The position numbers and the translations under genes are program-made. Of a DNA stretch of 64,000 nucleotides, positions 57,070 to 64,000 are shown one piece after another. The stretch spans positions 479,885-543,884 of the forward strand of contig CBDFJG010000001.1 in the NCBI GenBank assembly GCA_965248445.1. The letters run 5' to 3'. The notes beneath the pieces were generated by a model that was not told where the DNA came from, did no database searches, and saw nothing but the letters and a program-made list of their open reading frames with translations. Position 1 is the first letter of the stretch. Each line of letters opens with the position of its first letter. This stretch comes from Planctomycetota bacterium (GTDB lineage Bacteria; Planctomycetota; JAJSAM01; JAJVHW01).

Positions 57070-58106
57070 GCGACTCGCAGAGAGACCGCATCCGTCAGCG
57101 AGCGCAGGATCTCGGATTCGACCGCGTCGGATTCGCCGCCGCGGGAGAGAGCCGCGACGCCGCGCGATACCGCGAGTGGCTCGCCGCCGGTCGCGAGGCA
57201 GACCTCGAGTACATGCGCAAGGCTCCCGAGCGCCGCACCGATCCACGGAACGTCCTGCCCGGATGCAACACCGTCATCGTCGGCACCGTCGGTCATTGGT
57301 TCCCGGATGACGACGGGAGCGCCGCCCTACCGGCGCGCGTTGCGCGATACGCCCGCGGCCGCGACTACCACAAGATTCTGCAAGGCATGCTCAAGCGGCT
57401 CTGTCGCGTGCTGGACGAGGAGGCGGAGGGCGACGAGCGTCACCGCTGGTACGTAGATCACGGTCCGGTCCTCGAACGCGCGTGGGCGGCGGAGGCGGGC
57501 ATCGGCTTCGTCGGCAAGAACGCGATGCTGATCGACCCGCGGCGGGGTTCGTGGACCACCCTCGGGGTCGTGTTGACAACGCTCGAGATCGCACCGGACA
57601 CGCCGGTGACGGATTCCTGCGGCACCTGCACTGCCTGCATCCCCGCCTGCCCCACCGGGGCCATCGTCGGACCCGGCCAGGTCGACTCGCGGCTGTGCAT
57701 CAGCTACTGGACGATCGAGCACCGCGGTGCGATCCCCGATGCCATGCGGAGCGCACTCGGCACGCGCGTCTTCGGTTGCGACGACTGCCAGGACGCCTGC
57801 CCGTGGAACCGCTTCGCGCAGCCCGCCACGGTGGAGGATCACCGGCCGCGAGAGCTGTTCGCGGATCCGGACCTCACCCGCCTGGCGACCCTCACCCACG
57901 AAGAGTGGGACGACGCGACCCGCGGCACCGCCGTGCGCCGCGCCGGCTACGAGGGCCTCCTCCGCAACGTGGCCTGCGCCCTCGGCAACACCGGCGACGC
58001 CCGTGCGCGCACGCCGCTCGAACACCTGGCCGAGCACGAGAGTGAACTGGTTCGGGAGCATGCCACCTGGGGTCTCGACCAGCTCGACGCCGCCACAACC
58101 GCGTAG
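57066..58106 (+). CDS. queG: Epoxyqueuosine reductase
   Basis: 'ARYARGRDYH', 'PVLERAWA', 'CGTCTACIPACPTGA', 'CISYWTIE', 'FGCDDCQDACPWN'. Confidence 0.95.
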   Translation: MSDSQRDRIRQRAQDLGFDRVGFAAAGESRDAARYREWLAAGREADLEYMRKAPERRTDPRNVLPGCNTVIVGTVGHWFPDDDGSAALPARVARYARGRDYHKILQGMLKRLCRVLDEEAEGDERHRWYVDHGPVLERAWAAEAGIGFVGKNAMLIDPRRGSWTTLGVVLTTLEIAPDTPVTDSCGTCTACIPACPTGAIVGPGQVDSRLCISYWTIEHRGAIPDAMRSALGTRVFGCDDCQDACPWNRFAQPATVEDHRPRELFADPDLTRLATLTHEEWDDATRGTAVRRAGYEGLLRNVACALGNTGDARARTPLEHLAEHESELVREHATWGLDQLDAATTA

Positions 58107-58133
58107 GGGACCGCAAGCGGCAGACTGCGTGCG

Positions 58134-61100
58134 CTAGCCGAGGGCCTCCCACGCCGCGATGATCTCGCGGTTCACGAAGATGTTCTCGAGGATCGGTGCG
58201 CGCCTCTCGTCAGAGAGTCCCGCAACCGACTCGTCCACGCTCTGCTTGGCGGCCTCGAGGTGGGCACGGTCACCGGTCGCGCGGTAGAGCCACAGCAGAC
58301 ACTCGCGCCGGGACAACGGATCGAGCGCGTTGCCGTGCTCAGCGACGGCGGCCAGCGCAGCTCCGACGTGCTCGGGTGAGTGAGTCGCAAGACACGCCAT
58401 CGCCTGAGCGGCGCACCCCGATTCGCCGTGCTCTTCCGCGAGCGCGTGTAGCGAGAGGAGTGCCTGCGTCGCCTCGTCCGTGCGGCCGAGCCGCAGCAGT
58501 CGATCGCCGATGAGCAGTCGGCTGCAAGTATCGAGCTGCATGTTCCGGATGTCGGCCGCGATCGACTGCGCGTCGCGGGCGAGTTCGAGTGCCTCGGCGT
58601 CGTTGTCGACGAATCGTGCCAGGTTGTAGTTGGCAATCGCCTCGCCCCAGCGGCGATCGATCTCGCGACTGAGCTCGAGGTGGCGCGCGAACAGCTTGCG
58701 ACCCTCCTCGACCCGGCCCTGCATCACGCAGATGATGCCCAGGTTCCCGGTAGCGCGGACCTCGCCCTCGCGGTTGCCGATCTCGCGGCTGATCGCGCGA
58801 TCCCGTTCGACCAGCTCGCGTGCCTCGTCGTGGCGGCCCTGCGACCAGAGCAGTCCGCCCAGGTTTCCGGCAGCCGACGCCTCGCCGTAACGCTCTCCAT
58901 GCCGGCGCGACGCTTCCATGCCCTCGCGCATCTTCCGTCGCGCCTCATCGATGCGTCCGAGCTTCTGCAGCGCGTTGCCGATGTTGCCCGTGATGACCGC
59001 GACGCCCGCGGCATCGCCCGTTCGCTCGCGCGCCGCGAGGGCGCGTTCATAGAGCTCCAGCACCTCCTCGTACTGCCCCACCAGGTAGAGCAGGTTTCCC
59101 AGGGAGCCGAGAGCTGCGGAACGCTGGAGGTCGTCATCGAGTCGTTCGGCGGCGTCGGCAGCAGCGCGAAGCCGTGCCTCGCTCTCCGGGTACTTCGCAA
59201 CCGTCATCAACGCGCGGCCGAGAGATACCGAGGCCGTCGTCACGCGCTTCTCGTCGTCGCACTCCTCGGCGACCCTCAGCGCCTCACGCGCAGCCGCGAT
59301 CTGCTCCTCGCGGTGACCCAGCCGGTCCAGGAAGTCCACGTACTTCACCAGCAGATCCACTCGGAGTGATCCGCTCACCAGCCCCGGCGCGTCCAACGCA
59401 CGCCGCGCCAGGTCCGCCGCGGCCGCGCCCTCGTAGGCAGCCTTCAGGTGGGACAGGGCGGCATCGAGGTGCTCGAGCGCGTCGGGGCCGCGCGCGGCCG
59501 CGAGGTAGTGACGGCAGATCTCCACGGCAGTGACACCGTCCACGTCGCTCGACCCGGCCTCTGCTGCGAGGGCATCGGCCAGCGCGCCGTGGTACTCCTG
59601 ACGGATCGCCTCTGGTAGGCGGTCGTAGATCAGCTCCTGTAACGCGTGGTGGTCGAACACGAACCTCGGGCCGGACGCCCGGACGACGCTCTGCTCGCGC
59701 TCCATTCGTCCCAGTGCGCGCAGCGTCGCGAGCCGTGGCGCGCCGAGTGCTGCCGCCAGCAGCCGCCCGTCGAACTCGAAGCCTCGGCACGCGGCCAGTT
59801 CCAGCAGCTCCCGGTCCTCCGGAGACAAGGCCTCGAGGCGCAACTCGATGAGACTCTCGATCGTGCTGGGCGGCTTGATCTCGCGCACGATCGAGCGCGT
59901 GGCCCAGCCGCCGTCGTCGTCGCGGACGAGGACCTCCACGTCACGCAGGGACCGCACGATCTCGAGGAGGAAGAACGGGTTGCCGTCTGCCTTCGAGGCG
60001 ATGCTCTCGGAGAGTCGCTCCGCACGCGCCGAGATCCCCAGAACGGGAGCGAGCAGCCCCGCGACGTCGTCGGGTCCCAACCGGTGCAGGGGCATGCGCG
60101 TGACGTGGTCCAGCCGCGCCACATTCGCGTACCACTCCTTGGACACGCCGGGACGCGCCGTCCCGACGAGGAGCAAACGATGTCCGGTCACCGCCATGGC
60201 GAGGCTCGCGAAGACCGACCGGCCCTCCGCGGGCGCGAAGTGCAGGTCGTCGATGAAGACGATCGTGGGCCGCTCAGCGGCCAGCGAGCGCGTAGCGTGC
60301 ACGAACACGGTCTGCAGCGCCTGCTGCGACAGTCGCTCGGCGCCGTCCGGAGCGATCTCGCCTCGCAGCAACGCATCGAACGCGGGTGCCAGCGCAGGCA
60401 CGTCGCGCAGATAACCCCGCGAACCGCGGTCGCCGAACTGTTGGCCGTAGGCATCGGAGAACGCGCCGAGAACCGTCGCGGCGCCGCCGGGCGGGAATGA
60501 ACCGAACAGGAAGTTCACGTCCTGCCCCGCGGCACCGAGCCGCCGCACGAATTCGTCCACGAGGCGCGACTTGCCGATCCCGGCCTCGCCTTCGATCAGG
60601 AGGACCCGCCCGTCTCCCGCGGCCGCCGGCTCGTACAGCGAGTTCAGCAATGTCAGCTCGTCCTCGCGCCCCACGCAGTCGGTCTCGCGCGGAATGCGAA
60701 TGCGACGCAGCGGTCGGCGGGTCGACTCGGCGATTCGTGTGGCCTGATGCGACCACCACTGCGCCGCCTCGCCGTGTTCGAGGACGTCGGCGACGAGTGC
60801 TGCGCTCTCCGGGCGCTGCTCGGGCTGCTTCGCCAGCAGCATCAGCACGAGCTCCTCGAACAGCGGACTCAGTTGCGGATTGAGCTTGCCGGGCCGCCGC
60901 GGTCGCTCGTCCAGCACGGCGCGCATGAGCCCCTCGAACGTCGGCGCACTGAACGGCGGCTCACCGGTCGCGAGGTCGTAGAGCATCGCTCCGAGCGCAT
61001 AGAGGTCGGCCCGCTCGTCGAGATCTGCGGCGCCGCGAAACTGCTCGGGTGGCGAGAACGCAGCGGTGCCGATGAACATCCCGGTCATGGACAACCGGTC

Positions 61101-61598
61101 TTCGCCCGTCGCGTGCCGCGCCAGGCCCAGATCCATGACCTTCACCGACTGGTCCGACGTGATCAGGACGTTCGCGGGCTTGAGGTCACGGTGCACGATG
61201 CCTGCATCGTGGATGGCGCCGAGACCCTTCGCCACTTCGCACCCGATGTGGCGGCAGAGGTCTTCAGGAACGCGGCCGAGTTCCTTGCACAGATCCTCGA
61301 CAGTCTGCCCCTCCACGAACTCGAGCGCGACGAACGGCTGGCCGTCGATCTCGCCACCGTCGAGGGTGCGCACGACATTCGGGTGCATGATGCGCTTGCC
61401 GACGTCCACCTCGCGCAGGAAGCGGTCGCGGTACCCCTCCTTGGTCAGGAGATGTGCGTGCACGAGCTTGAGCGCCACCGTCGTGCCGGCAGCGACGCCG
61501 GCGACCGGCTCCTCGACGGTCGCTGCGAACACACGGCCCATGCCGCCGGATCCGAGCTCCGACTGCACGCGATACGGGCCAATGCGAACGTCCTCCAC
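58134..61598 (-). CDS. Ser/Thr protein kinase plus AAA (STAND-like) ATPase plus TPR protein
   Basis: 'LGSGGMG', 'HRDLKPAN', 'DLG'; Walker A 'GEAGIGKS', Walker B 'VFIDDLH'; C-terminal 'GNLG' TPR repeats. Confidence 0.9.
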   Translation of the reverse strand: MEDVRIGPYRVQSELGSGGMGRVFAATVEEPVAGVAAGTTVALKLVHAHLLTKEGYRDRFLREVDVGKRIMHPNVVRTLDGGEIDGQPFVALEFVEGQTVEDLCKELGRVPEDLCRHIGCEVAKGLGAIHDAGIVHRDLKPANVLITSDQSVKVMDLGLARHATGEDRLSMTGMFIGTAAFSPPEQFRGAADLDERADLYALGAMLYDLATGEPPFSAPTFEGLMRAVLDERPRRPGKLNPQLSPLFEELVLMLLAKQPEQRPESAALVADVLEHGEAAQWWSHQATRIAESTRRPLRRIRIPRETDCVGREDELTLLNSLYEPAAAGDGRVLLIEGEAGIGKSRLVDEFVRRLGAAGQDVNFLFGSFPPGGAATVLGAFSDAYGQQFGDRGSRGYLRDVPALAPAFDALLRGEIAPDGAERLSQQALQTVFVHATRSLAAERPTIVFIDDLHFAPAEGRSVFASLAMAVTGHRLLLVGTARPGVSKEWYANVARLDHVTRMPLHRLGPDDVAGLLAPVLGISARAERLSESIASKADGNPFFLLEIVRSLRDVEVLVRDDDGGWATRSIVREIKPPSTIESLIELRLEALSPEDRELLELAACRGFEFDGRLLAAALGAPRLATLRALGRMEREQSVVRASGPRFVFDHHALQELIYDRLPEAIRQEYHGALADALAAEAGSSDVDGVTAVEICRHYLAAARGPDALEHLDAALSHLKAAYEGAAAADLARRALDAPGLVSGSLRVDLLVKYVDFLDRLGHREEQIAAAREALRVAEECDDEKRVTTASVSLGRALMTVAKYPESEARLRAAADAAERLDDDLQRSAALGSLGNLLYLVGQYEEVLELYERALAARERTGDAAGVAVITGNIGNALQKLGRIDEARRKMREGMEASRRHGERYGEASAAGNLGGLLWSQGRHDEARELVERDRAISREIGNREGEVRATGNLGIICVMQGRVEEGRKLFARHLELSREIDRRWGEAIANYNLARFVDNDAEALELARDAQSIAADIRNMQLDTCSRLLIGDRLLRLGRTDEATQALLSLHALAEEHGESGCAAQAMACLATHSPEHVGAALAAVAEHGNALDPLSRRECLLWLYRATGDRAHLEAAKQSVDESVAGLSDERRAPILENIFVNREIIAAWEALG

Positions 61599-61725
61599 CT
61601 CTGAAAGGTAGCACCCGCAGGGTTGGCGGGCGATGGCCCGCCGCGACGACCGACGCATCCACAGTCTGAGCAGCGCCATGTCCCCCGCCTCGCGTCGGGG
61701 CAACCAGATCGAACCGGTTGCGTGG

Positions 61726-61757
61726 GGGCGCCCCGCTCCTCTCGGAACGGGACGCCC
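61726..61757 (-). terminator. Hairpin directly after the slipin stop codon
   Basis: GGGCGTCCCGTTCC-GAGA-GGAGCGGGGCGCCC, GNRA loop with G-U pairs on the minus strand; no U-tract. Confidence 0.45.
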
Positions 61758-61762
61758 TGTCG

Positions 61763-62892
61763 TCAAGTGCCGCGTCCACGCGCGCCGATCAGACTCGTGA
61801 CCTGATCGGTGAGGTCGCCCTGACCCAGAACGAACGTCGCGTTCGTACCGGCCAGGATCTCACCCATCAGTTCGAGCTCACGGATACGCGCGAGCACGGG
61901 ATTCTGTGCGAGCAGACGTGCGGTGTTGGCCTGTGAACGGGCCGCCGCCGTCTCCTCACGACGTGTGATGACGTTGGCCTCTGCCTCCTTCTGCGCCGTG
62001 ATCACACGGTTCAGAATGGTCTTCATGTCACCCGGGAGCACGATGTCGCGCAGACCGACCGCACGCACCGTGACGCCGAAACCGGCACCACGGGCGGCGA
62101 GGGTCTTCGCCACCTCCGCACCCACGGACTCCTTGTCCGCGAGCAGCGCGTCGATGTCCCGCGTGCCCACCGCTGCGCGCAGCACGAGCTGCGCTTCGCG
62201 GTAGAGCGTCTGCGAGGCATCGGCCACCTTCGTGACCGCGGCGACCGGATCGGTCACGCGGTAGGTCACGACGAGGTTCACGCGCAGGGTCACCTTGTCC
62301 CGGGTCATGATCTCCTGACCCGCGACGTCGAGGACCTGCTCACGTCGATCCACGGTGCAAACCGAGACGCGGCCCACGCCCGTCCAGCGCACGTAGCGTC
62401 CGGACTTCACGTGGTCCACGAGCTCACCGTCCCGGAACACGAGCAATTCGTGGCTCGGTTCGGTGGGGATCTCCTTCACGAGGCCTGCTGCCCCCCGCAC
62501 TGCGAGGATTGCGTCGATCTGATCGTGCACGAGGCGCAGCCCCGTGGCATCGATGCGCTCGACGCGCACTTCCGCAGGCGCCTTCCAGAACGCGTGGCGT
62601 CCCGGACCGAGCACCCACGTCACACGACCGTCCTTCCAGACGATCGCGCGCTCGTAGTCGGCGAGGTCCACGACCTCGATGAGCTGGCGCACTGACGCGT
62701 ACTGCACGAGCAGTTCGAGTCGCGGGTGCTCGAAGCGCGTCGCGGTGACGTCGTAGGTCTCTAGGCATCGCGCTCCGCACCCCAGAGCGCGCTGCGCACC
62801 CAGTGCTTGCCCGGCAGGAGCACGTCGATCAGATCGGCGCCGCGGAAGCGGAGACCGATCTGGTGCTGTGCGATTCGGACACGCTGATACAT
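61763..62892 (-). pseudogene. Slipin-family SPFH/band-7 protein with a 1-nt frameshift
   Basis: SD AGGAGG and ATG at 62892 give MYQRVRIAQHQIGLRFRG...ERDA-stop; continues in another frame as 'ETYDV...GQEIMTRDKVTLRVN...RDIVLPGDMK...RREETAAARSQANTA'. Confidence 0.82.
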
Positions 62893-63303
62893 GGTTCTGT
62901 CCTCCTGTCCGGCCTCTGTGAGGCGGGTCATCGGTGCGGTGTCCGGACCGTCCGGACAGCCGTGTCATTCGGTTGGGCGCCTCATTCGTTGGGGGCGTCA
63001 GTCTTCGTTGGCTTTCCGGGGCGGGCTCCGCCCGTCTCACCCCGCGCACCGCGGCGGATTCCGGGGGACACGCAGGCGGACGTGCTTCGCCCGGCGGGCG
63101 GGAGCCGCCTGTGTGGCGTACTCCGAACCCGCCGGGGTCCGCGATCCGGGTCTGCATGGCACCCTGGAGCACTGGCCGTGTGCACGGTGCGCTGCCACGC
63201 GACCCGTCCGGCGCGAACGCCTTCTGAGACCTCGTGACCGCGCTGGAGAGACGTCTTCGCCTCGCCCCGGTCCGCCGGAATAGAGAGGGGTTTTGAAGCC
63301 CTC

Positions 63304-63376
63304 GTGTGGCAGCGGGAGTCGAACCCGCGACGTCCAAGGTGTCAGCCTGGTGCTCTAACCGTCTGAGCTATGCCGT
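63304..63376 (-). tRNA. tRNA-Val(GAC)-like RNA with degenerate acceptor stem
   Basis: D-arm TAGCTCAG..GGTTAGAGC, anticodon arm CCAGG-CTGACAC-CTTGG, T-arm GCGGGTTCGACTCCCGC; only 4 acceptor pairs and no CCA. Confidence 0.75.
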
Positions 63377-63452
63377 TGGTCGCGACGGTGGGAATCGAAC
63401 CCACGACCTCCAGCTTGTGAGGCCGGCGCTCTTCCAGCTGAGCTACGTCGCA
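63377..63452 (-). tRNA. tRNA-Val(CAC)
   Basis: 76 nt; acceptor TGCGACG/CGTCGCG, anticodon arm CCGGC-CTCACAA-GCTGG, T-arm GTGGGTTCGATTCCCAC, A73, encoded CCA. Confidence 0.9.
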
Positions 63453-63464
63453 ACGGTACGTCCG

Positions 63465-63775
63465 CCGGGCGGTTTCGATGCCGTGCACGGAACGCGCGTC
63501 GAGGAGTCCCCCACCGCGCCGCTGGCCCGGAACCGACAGCCGTTTCCTAGATGTGTTAGTGCCCGCGGCCTTGTGGCCGTTGCTGCGTCGCCGTCCTTCG
63601 TTCGCGGACTCGCTCACCGCGCTACTCGGCCTAGGCCGCGGGCTGTTTCGTGCTTCTCGACTGCATCTGTCTCCCTTCGCGAATCGAGCGAGCCCCGGAG
63701 ATCCTTGGACCTCCGGGGCTCGCGGCTCCCCGTGCCGTTTGGGCGTTGGGGGAGTCACTCCGCTCGCAAGGGAGG
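63465..63775 (-). ncRNA. Putative large multi-helix structured RNA upstream of the tRNAs
   Basis: Nested helices 63764-63774/63671-63682, 63688-63723, 63726-63754, 63633-63643/63561-63571, 63525-63530/63465-63470; no credible ORF. Confidence 0.6.
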
Positions 63776-64000
63776 GCCTTCCGTCGCGTACGACAAGCGC
63801 ATAAAGCGCGCGCCGCACCGTGGGACGATCAGTCGGTGTTCGTTGCTCATGAGCAGGCTGGAACGCGAGGCACGCGCGAGAGGTTCGGTGGAAACTTGAG
63901 AATCTCTGATCTACGCAACGCCGTGCTCCGTGCACGCAGCCGCGATGTCGCGATGCAGACGGTTGCGTTCGACCATCGTGTCGCGGACACACTCCGCCGG

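Follow-up and report, generated by a model that had tools for sequence, protein, structure and literature searches.

A Band-7 protein gene preceded by a strongly tRNA-like RNA (b7a-tRNA) has been predicted near RtcB, an association credited to Burroughs and Aravind 2016 in the preprint that cites it (bioRxiv 10.1101/312249). According to the same text, b7a-tRNA has not yet been validated and is proposed to be functionally redundant with YrlA. In P. aeruginosa, PaFlo8 is described as lying inside the rtc locus. For Anabaena, the slipin alr0740, rtcB and a long tRNA array are reported as one regulon, co-induced by translational stress (PMC8421152, PMC10272220). Here we analyzed a strongly folded stretch of ~320 nt (63465-63775) that precedes two tRNA-likes and a slipin (Band_7) gene in a planctomycete genome (G000; 5.4 Mb, 4 contigs, 92% complete). 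The stretch is part of a 64,000-nt segment, the window (G000:C1:479885-543884), and all module coordinates are window positions on the minus strand.

An earlier note on this DNA had proposed that the ~320 nt form one ornate RNA at the head of an undescribed system. As to the system, this is contradicted by the 2016 prediction of Band-7 and b7a-tRNA next to RtcB, as summarized in the citing preprint, and the locus is a planctomycete copy of that predicted module. As to the stretch, we favor, with a probability of roughly 0.6, a different reading: it acts as leader and control region at the 5' end of a Band-7 (slipin)/tRNA-mimic module of the RtcB-type RNA-repair kind, and not as one conserved ornate RNA, because only its third domain (domain iii) is conserved.

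Results

A covarying leader motif directly precedes the tRNA-likes

Related loci were gathered by anchoring on the slipin protein, as BLAST with the tRNA pair for synteny was swamped by ordinary tRNAs. The set comprised 66 metagenome loci and the best 80 of 278 genome-contig loci. The slipin relatives came nearly all from metagenome-assembled genomes (MAGs) of Planctomycetota, chiefly Phycisphaerae. Most loci with enough upstream sequence carried same-strand tRNA or tRNA-like genes before slipin, and the flanking protein genes varied from locus to locus. Pairwise and profile searches located the conserved part solely in the 45-100 nt directly 5' of the first tRNA-like, and in the tRNA-likes themselves. 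This leader motif corresponds to domain iii, whose CCGGGC/GCCCGG helix reaches to 63465 and leaves 12 nt to the tRNA, which starts at 63452.

A covariance model of the motif (R1) matched 31 of 68 and 69 of 80 sources, all on the slipin strand, with no further match at E<0.01 across the 829 kb searched. The 100 leader-bearing rows, in which L042 and L109 are the same contig, stem mostly from Planctomycetota, with some from Acidobacteriota and one from a Lindowbacteria MAG. The motif occurs once in G000. It was also found in at least 11 of 150 further genomes drawn evenly from the phylum, a lower bound obtained with stricter filters. Cultured organisms with an R1 match are Rohdeia mirabilis Pla163, Adhaeretor mobilis HG15A2, Lacipirellula limnantheis I41, Bythopirellula polymerisocia Pla144 and Sulfidibacter corallicola M133. 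The order of leader motif, tRNA mimic, spacer and slipin is kept in 100 related loci, with the end of the motif 324-1494 nt (median 615) upstream of the start of the slipin match. Thus, the conserved unit of RNA, tRNA, tRNA mimic, RNA and slipin that had been proposed from this locus held up. So did its tie to RNA repair, as RtcB directly follows slipin in the orthologous locus of the nearest relative (G002; its locus is L042).

The motif consists of a closing stem (P1) around a long irregular hairpin, followed by the conserved single strand AUCGRAAC. The 5' strand of the hairpin, GCCR-GCGG-CGCGC..., pairs with ...GYGUG-(UU)-CCGY-(GNA)-YGGC, and its bulges are invariant. When 36 copies were aligned with MAFFT and folded with RNAalifold, 17 of 21 pairs were kept through changes on both sides. 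Even near-invariant pairs showed compensated single changes, such as GCAG with CUGU (L136) and GUGG with CCAC (L050). An alignment of 66 sequences to R1 had 88.7% of cells paired (71.7% when shuffled), both-side changes in 19 of 21 pairs and a covariation score of 0.51, compared with 0.205 for shuffled alignments (0 of 500 reached the observed value) and 0.06-0.14 for slid partners; this alignment was fitted to the model and favors its structure, and the MAFFT-only alignment, which gave the same helices, serves as the independent check. The motif matched no Rfam 15 family in the window or in the five best loci. We found no description of it in the literature searched, which covered the 2016 prediction through a citing paper and without its supplements. 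These results show that domain iii is a conserved, covarying structured RNA motif of ~100 nt that is absent from Rfam 15.

In Pirellulales-type loci, a conserved TCAAGCAAGGT box stands between tRNA-Cys and the leader motif, 10-25 nt ahead of the leader core. This box could belong to the RNA, or act as a processing site or promoter.

The leader motif might act purely in cis, either as a sensor (similar to a riboswitch, or binding the end of a damaged or uncharged tRNA) or by controlling RNase P 5' processing of the mimic, with no part in a ribonucleoprotein. Its invariant unpaired and bulged nucleotides and its fixed place 5-15 nt before the mimic fit such a role. Moreover, in loci with tRNA arrays the leader stands between the last true tRNA and the mimic, where it would be cut out or govern the cutting. 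However, neither a terminator nor a Shine-Dalgarno mask follows the leader; an expression platform is absent because the tRNA mimic follows directly, and Rfam provides no clue to a ligand or family. We regard cis action as possible, though doubtful.

A candidate attenuator precedes the leader motif

The region upstream of the leader was surveyed in the 95 loci with at least 160 nt of sequence. A strict rule detected an intrinsic terminator in 14 of them, 8-116 nt before the leader (~20 loci under looser rules), and 29 had a tRNA. The terminators have one stem in common, (G/A)GCCCCGGAGG...CCUCCGGGGCUU, with a T-run after it; the 13-bp hairpin in domain i of the window has this stem. In related loci the CCCCGGAG/CTCCGGGG stem with its T-run stands before the leader motif. 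The pattern CCCGGAG-N3-16-CTCCGGG occurs 4 times in the 5.4 Mb of G000, one of them here, and 11 times in the related loci (765 kb), 8 of these 13-107 nt before the leader.

The earlier note had seen no credible open reading frame (ORF) in this DNA. This was correct for 63465-63754, but a 31-codon ATG ORF (63850-63755) ends in the 5' arm of domain i. Its frame measures 51 codons from stop to stop and closes with ...EGPPLRAE*, i.e. G-P-P and a stop five codons on. Short ORFs ending in PPR, PPG, SPG or similar were found in 13 other loci, and wherever their distance to the homologous hairpin was measured it came to 23-37 nt. The Pro-Pro codons, CCU CCG, complement the 5' arm of the hairpin; in the 7 loci whose complement is exact over 6 nt or more, they lie 25-31 nt before it. 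In L088 and L125 both elements co-vary, the hairpin arm reading CCCUGAAGG and the upstream segment CCUUCAGGG. Among the 24 hairpin-bearing loci, 18 carry an ORF that starts with ATG, spans at least 15 codons and ends at the pairing segment, and 14 have PP, SP or TP near the ORF stop (read by eye from the output). These 14 frames are all short (50-133 codons from stop to stop, one running off its locus) and have no other sequence in common.

From these features we infer that the short ORF and the terminator constitute a trp-like, translation-sensing attenuator. In the window, the ORF would run into domain i, whose CCCCGGAG/CTCCGGGG hairpin would be the counterpart of the terminator in Phycisphaerae-type loci. 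A ribosome at the ORF stop would mask the antiterminator segment (CCU CCG), so that transcription stops. When translation falters, the segment would be free, the terminator could not form and the module would be read, following the logic of the trp attenuator. Domain i of the window looks like a degenerate copy of the attenuator terminator, because it lacks a T-run, the segment that would complement it is mutated and alternative pairing is not significant.

Note that in related loci the 5' arm of the terminator holds GGAGG, resembling a Shine-Dalgarno sequence, and the pairing segment holds CCUCC, resembling an anti-Shine-Dalgarno sequence. Therefore, binding of a free 30S subunit or of 16S rRNA could also affect the switch. 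A putative conserved hairpin just before the leader ('P0'), present in ~21 of ~90 loci, was dropped because this count does not exceed the background density of hairpins.

Alternatively, domains i and ii could be unrelated to the module. They would then be neutral GC-rich inverted repeats, what is left of a palindromic element, or an insulator within the 674 nt that separate the module from the divergent SBP_bac_5 gene, and the likeness of the hairpin would reflect convergence. In line with this view, both domains are unique to the genome, the G000 hairpin shows the missing T-run and pairing just described, and in G002 the corresponding place is taken by a different palindrome of 100 nt. Against it stand the rarity of the CCCGGAG..CTCCGGG pattern in the genome together with its clustering before the leader in related loci, and the presence of a G-P-P ORF with a stop five codons on at a comparable upstream distance, as in 13 other loci. 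We consider an unrelated origin of the two domains unlikely.

Domains i and ii are strongly folded and specific to this genome

All helices that the earlier note had drawn were found on the minus strand (Table 1), including the inner stems GGCCG/CGGCC and CGCGG/CCGCG of domain ii. The minimum-free-energy fold of 63453-63800 includes them and has an energy of -173.5 kcal/mol, compared with -154.2 ± 5.3 kcal/mol for 100 dinucleotide shuffles (z -3.6). When the domains were shuffled separately (100 times each), domains i and ii together folded far more stably than shuffles (z -7.4; individual values in Table 1), whereas domain iii did not (z +1.0). Thus, the excess stability resides in domains i and ii. 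Their energy was also ~3 standard deviations below the GC regression of 1500 random native 234-nt windows of G000. The fold of domains i and ii is real and unusual. It is not unique in the genome, because 5 of the 1500 native windows were equally stable; at this rate, some hundred windows of comparable stability are expected in the whole genome.

Homologues and covariation, as described above, were obtained for domain iii. In contrast, nhmmer searches of 147 slipin loci (765 kb) and of the remaining G000 genome detected no homologue of domains i and ii. Neither the remainder of the gap nor the 412 nt searched as the spacer between the tRNA-likes and slipin had an nhmmer match in these loci or in G000. 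By BLAST, the 458-nt upstream region is single-copy in G000, and a search of 40 relatives returned two short weak matches (55 and 38 nt), judged to be noise. We also tried domain ii as a repeated element and rejected this, its helix pair occurring once in the genome. Domain ii appears to be a genome-specific hairpin insert between the domain i hairpin and the leader motif.

In the G002 gap (L042 6965-7065), a palindrome of ~100 nt occupies the place of domains i and ii, with an unbroken stem of ~29 bp by eye. This palindrome yields spurious matches to microRNA families in Rfam.

The earlier note had further likened the stretch to large ornate RNAs such as GOLLD and ROOL. No such likeness was found: GOLLD, ROOL, OLE, raiA and other large ornate Rfam RNAs gave no match in 58000-64000 (E<=1), in L001 (E<=10) or in the five best loci (E<=0.1). 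Beyond the two tRNAs, the Rfam 15 comparison of 58000-64000 returned only a sub-threshold match to YrlA. That domains i-iii together make up a single large ornate noncoding RNA of a new class, ~320 nt long and heading the unit, is improbable: although the three domains are contiguous, strongly folded and without an Rfam match, and other loci, e.g. L088, also hold several hairpins between terminator and leader, domains i and ii lack homologues in the 147 loci and elsewhere in the genome and have equals among native windows, domain i matches the terminator element, the tRNA upstream of the leader in 29 of 95 loci lies within 160 nt and often within 25 nt of it, and the 14 strict-rule terminators leave no room for domains i and ii.

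The tRNA-likes are probably mimics and are followed by a further RNA domain

Both tRNA-likes of the window scored above the gathering score of RF00005. The acceptor stem has 7 pairs, including a U-G pair, in tRNA-like 1 and just 4 pairs in tRNA-like 2. Housekeeping Val tRNAs (GAC, CAC, TAC) are encoded elsewhere in G000, all with GGGCG-type acceptor stems, and the T arm of tRNA-like 1 differs from theirs. With its 4-pair acceptor and missing CCA, tRNA-like 2 is best read as a mimic.

Across the 100 loci, a T-loop motif was present within 160 nt after the leader motif in 98, and ARAGORN called a tRNA starting within 80 nt after the leader in 55. These 55 calls bear 32 different anticodon labels; 13 have loops of a length other than 7 nt and 9 have an A34 other than in ACG. 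Moreover, 13 of the 14 Leu/Ser calls lack a long variable arm and are only 72-76 nt in length. The multitude of labels, the odd loops, the A34 and the short Leu/Ser calls suggest that the tRNA-likes after the leader are non-decoding mimics. In G002, the 'anticodon' loops of the tRNA-likes measure 4 and 6 nt. A third, partial tRNA-like follows the two mimics there (L042 7300-7400), with acceptor-like GCGUGU/ACACGC and the T arm GAGGGUUCAAAUCCCUC. Its counterpart in G000 is the T-arm-like hairpin only, and GAGGGTTCAAATCCCTC in the G002 locus resembles this hairpin.

A downstream RNA domain after the mimic, ~250-280 nt in length, was matched by profiles in 34 of 100 (Pirellulales-type seed) and 30 of 100 loci (Phycisphaerae-type seed), with G000, G002 and L113 below significance. 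A regular expression for its core, TGYAG..GGAT..CG (N4-GGAT-N2-CG after GCCATGCAG), was found in 29 of 100 loci, G000 included.

The slipin gene and its surroundings

The slipin reading frame of the window breaks at 62756-62769: an in-frame TAG (62763-62761) follows after 43 codons, and the Band_7 frame resumes at ~62755, one base out. Over 62000-64000 the window does not differ from the Logan contigs of runs X1 and X3; these contigs represent one sample, possibly the source, and may not be independent. The protein had been seen as a membrane SPFH scaffold, a view that is not supported: slipin has no predicted membrane helix, and no 19-residue window exceeds 1.12 (Kyte-Doolittle). G002, whose slipin is 62% identical, was the only one among 16 genomes of the order with an orthologous locus. 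The adjacency of RtcB observed there was not seen in 18 other slipin loci scanned.

In many Pirellulales-type genomes and in a Lindowbacteria MAG, an array of 10-23 tRNA genes on the same strand ends with leader, mimic and slipin. The loci with tRNA arrays include L126, L127, L149, L150, L158, L168 and L187, and the last gene before the leader in array loci is usually tRNA-Cys. The Ignavibacteriaceae loci L149 and L150 have no leader match, and an array of ~20 tRNAs follows slipin instead.

On the minus strand of G000, the divergent SBP_bac_5 gene (start at ~64127, beyond the window edge) is followed by the 674-nt gap, the two tRNA-likes, a 411-nt spacer, slipin and a Pkinase-AAA_16-TPR gene. 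The latter (58134-61766, minus strand) encodes a Ser/Thr kinase of 1210 amino acids with AAA_16 and TPR, directly 3' of slipin and overlapping its stop by 4 nt; no link of this gene to the module was seen in other loci. The 12 kb past the window edge contain SBP_bac_5, a hydrolase, a PD40 protein, GMP synthase, IMPDH, BatA/VWA and DUF58, and none of the WYL, RtcR, RtcB or TROVE genes for which the earlier note had proposed to inspect the sequence beyond 64000. A scan of 62700-64000 revealed no sigma-70 promoter. A sigma-54 reading of conserved GGCAT..CGC, made by eye, was dropped because its spacing and letters are not kept across loci.

Table 1. Features of the slipin/tRNA-mimic locus (window positions)
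Feature	Position	Strand	Description
Candidate leader ORF	63755..63850	-	31 codons, ATG; MSNEHRLIVPRCGARFMRLSYATEGPPLRAE*; stop inside 5' arm of domain i
Domain i	63671..63774	-	Outer helix around CTCCCC/GGGGAG and 13-bp hairpin; z -6.7
Domain i outer helix	63774-63764 with 63682-63671	-	CTCCCTTGCGA with TCGCGAAGGGAG
13-bp hairpin	63688-63723 (arms 63723-63711, 63700-63688)	-	GCGAGCCCCGGAG/CTCCGGGGCTCGC
Domain ii	63545..63668	-	AGATG/CATCT around 11-bp helix and inner stems; z -4.3
Domain ii 11-bp helix	63643-63633 with 63571-63561	-	GCCCGCGGCCT with AGGCCGCGGGC
Leader motif (domain iii)	63448..63550	-	Covariance model R1, 51.3 bits
tRNA-like 1, called tRNA-Val(CAC)	63377..63452	-	RF00005 65.3 bits; U1-G72 pair, encoded CCA
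tRNA-like 2, called tRNA-Val(GAC)	63304..63377	-	RF00005 51.5 bits (model positions 4-67 only); without CCA
T-arm-like hairpin	63285..63303	-	GAGGGCTTCAAAACCCCTC; directly after tRNA-like 2
Downstream-domain core	63139..63198	-	GGCAGCGC ... GCCATGCAG-ACCC-GGAT-CG-CG; diverged in G000
Slipin (Band_7)	61763..62892	-	ATG 62892-62890; Pfam Band_7 99.3 bits; frameshifted

Discussion

A control and leader region of a slipin/tRNA-mimic module would account for the conserved leader motif, the terminator-like hairpin and the ORF that ends in it. Within such a module, the leader motif and the downstream RNA domain would most likely be the RNA partner of the soluble slipin, by analogy with Y RNA and Ro/Rsr, and the pair might aid RtcB-type repair of damaged tRNA or rRNA. 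A bolder version, which we put forward as tentative, is that leader hairpin, mimic(s) and downstream domain are one RNA of 0.5-0.7 kb. This RNA would join a soluble SPFH ring in a Y-RNA/Ro-like or vault-like particle, made only when the Pro-Pro/stop attenuator senses failing translation. If true, the particle would be a widespread, never-observed bacterial ribonucleoprotein guarding or repairing the tRNA pool.

Several observations weigh against reading the stretch as the control and leader region of an RNA-repair module. Upstream of the leader, the strict rule detected neither a terminator nor a tRNA in 52 of the 95 loci. The tail of the window hairpin, TCGATTCGC, has a T at 3 of 9 positions, and the terminator search made no call at this hairpin. 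The pairing of upstream segment and hairpin beats mononucleotide shuffles at p<0.05 in just 5 of 24 loci, and in the window, where the segment is mutated (CCUCCC), the best upstream pairing does not exceed that of shuffles (p 0.76). The leader ORFs agree only in their C-terminal codons, which RNA pairing alone could explain, and GC-rich DNA often contains open frames of 30-60 codons. The leader copy of the window is itself weak, scoring 51 bits compared with up to 89, with a poorly aligned P1 and an A-C mismatch in P2, and the sole RtcB copy of G000 is on another contig, not beside slipin. The module may be decaying in this genome, in view of the slipin frameshift, the distant RtcB, the weak leader copy and the crippled second mimic. 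Finally, contigs of X6, the one RNA run among four runs compared (of 7 in 4 studies), cover only 62303-62341, 62502-62652 and 63384-63417, at 90-99% likeness. These pieces are conserved slipin and tRNA parts of a relative. X6 did not cover 63453-63850, which speaks neither for nor against transcription of the leader.

Band-7/b7a-tRNA systems are a prediction of comparative genomics that, according to the texts consulted, was never tested at the bench. To this our analysis adds a covarying RNA motif, absent from Rfam 15, that marks such modules in Planctomycetota and other phyla, a candidate translation-sensing switch before the module, and a physical link of the module to long tRNA arrays. The role of tRNA mimics and soluble SPFH proteins in RNA repair thereby becomes directly testable. 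The window's copy is a poor model, because it is partly decayed in appearance. The worthwhile result is the leader motif with the candidate attenuator, best pursued in cultured carriers.

Known systems resemble the locus in part. Like trp-type attenuators, the candidate switch combines a short ORF with a terminator: the last part of the ORF overlaps a segment that complements the terminator's 5' arm, which lies 25-31 nt further on. In contrast to them, it contains no runs of regulatory codons; what is conserved is Pro-Pro(-Arg/Gly) just before the stop, and the window copy has no T-run. YrlA, described with Rsr/Ro60 in rsr-yrlBA-rtcBA operons, likewise joins a tRNA-like module to a protein-binding stem beside RNA-repair genes. 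However, matches to YrlA (RF02553) reached only 31.6 bits in the window, 44.1 in G002 and 27.7 in L045, compared with a gathering score of 69, and the window match spans the junction of the two tandem tRNA-likes. In YrlA the tRNA-like is inserted in a stem, whereas here the hairpin precedes the tRNA-like, and no match to TROVE (PF05731) was found in the 92% complete G000.

The Pirellulales-type loci recall the L-arrays and TrcR regulon of Anabaena, in that leader, mimic and slipin end an array of 10-23 tRNAs. In contrast, G000 has two tRNA-likes and no array, and control in Anabaena is described as exerted by a repressor, not an attenuator. The closest described system remains the predicted Band-7/b7a-tRNA module, which shares the Band_7 gene preceded by a tRNA-resembling RNA and, in the orthologous locus of G002, the adjacent RtcB. 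G000 departs from it with RtcB elsewhere and slipin frameshifted. More generally, the module described here differs from the 2016 prediction, compared through a summary of the original in which prior description is possible, by a structured leader of ~100 nt before the mimic and a further RNA domain after it.

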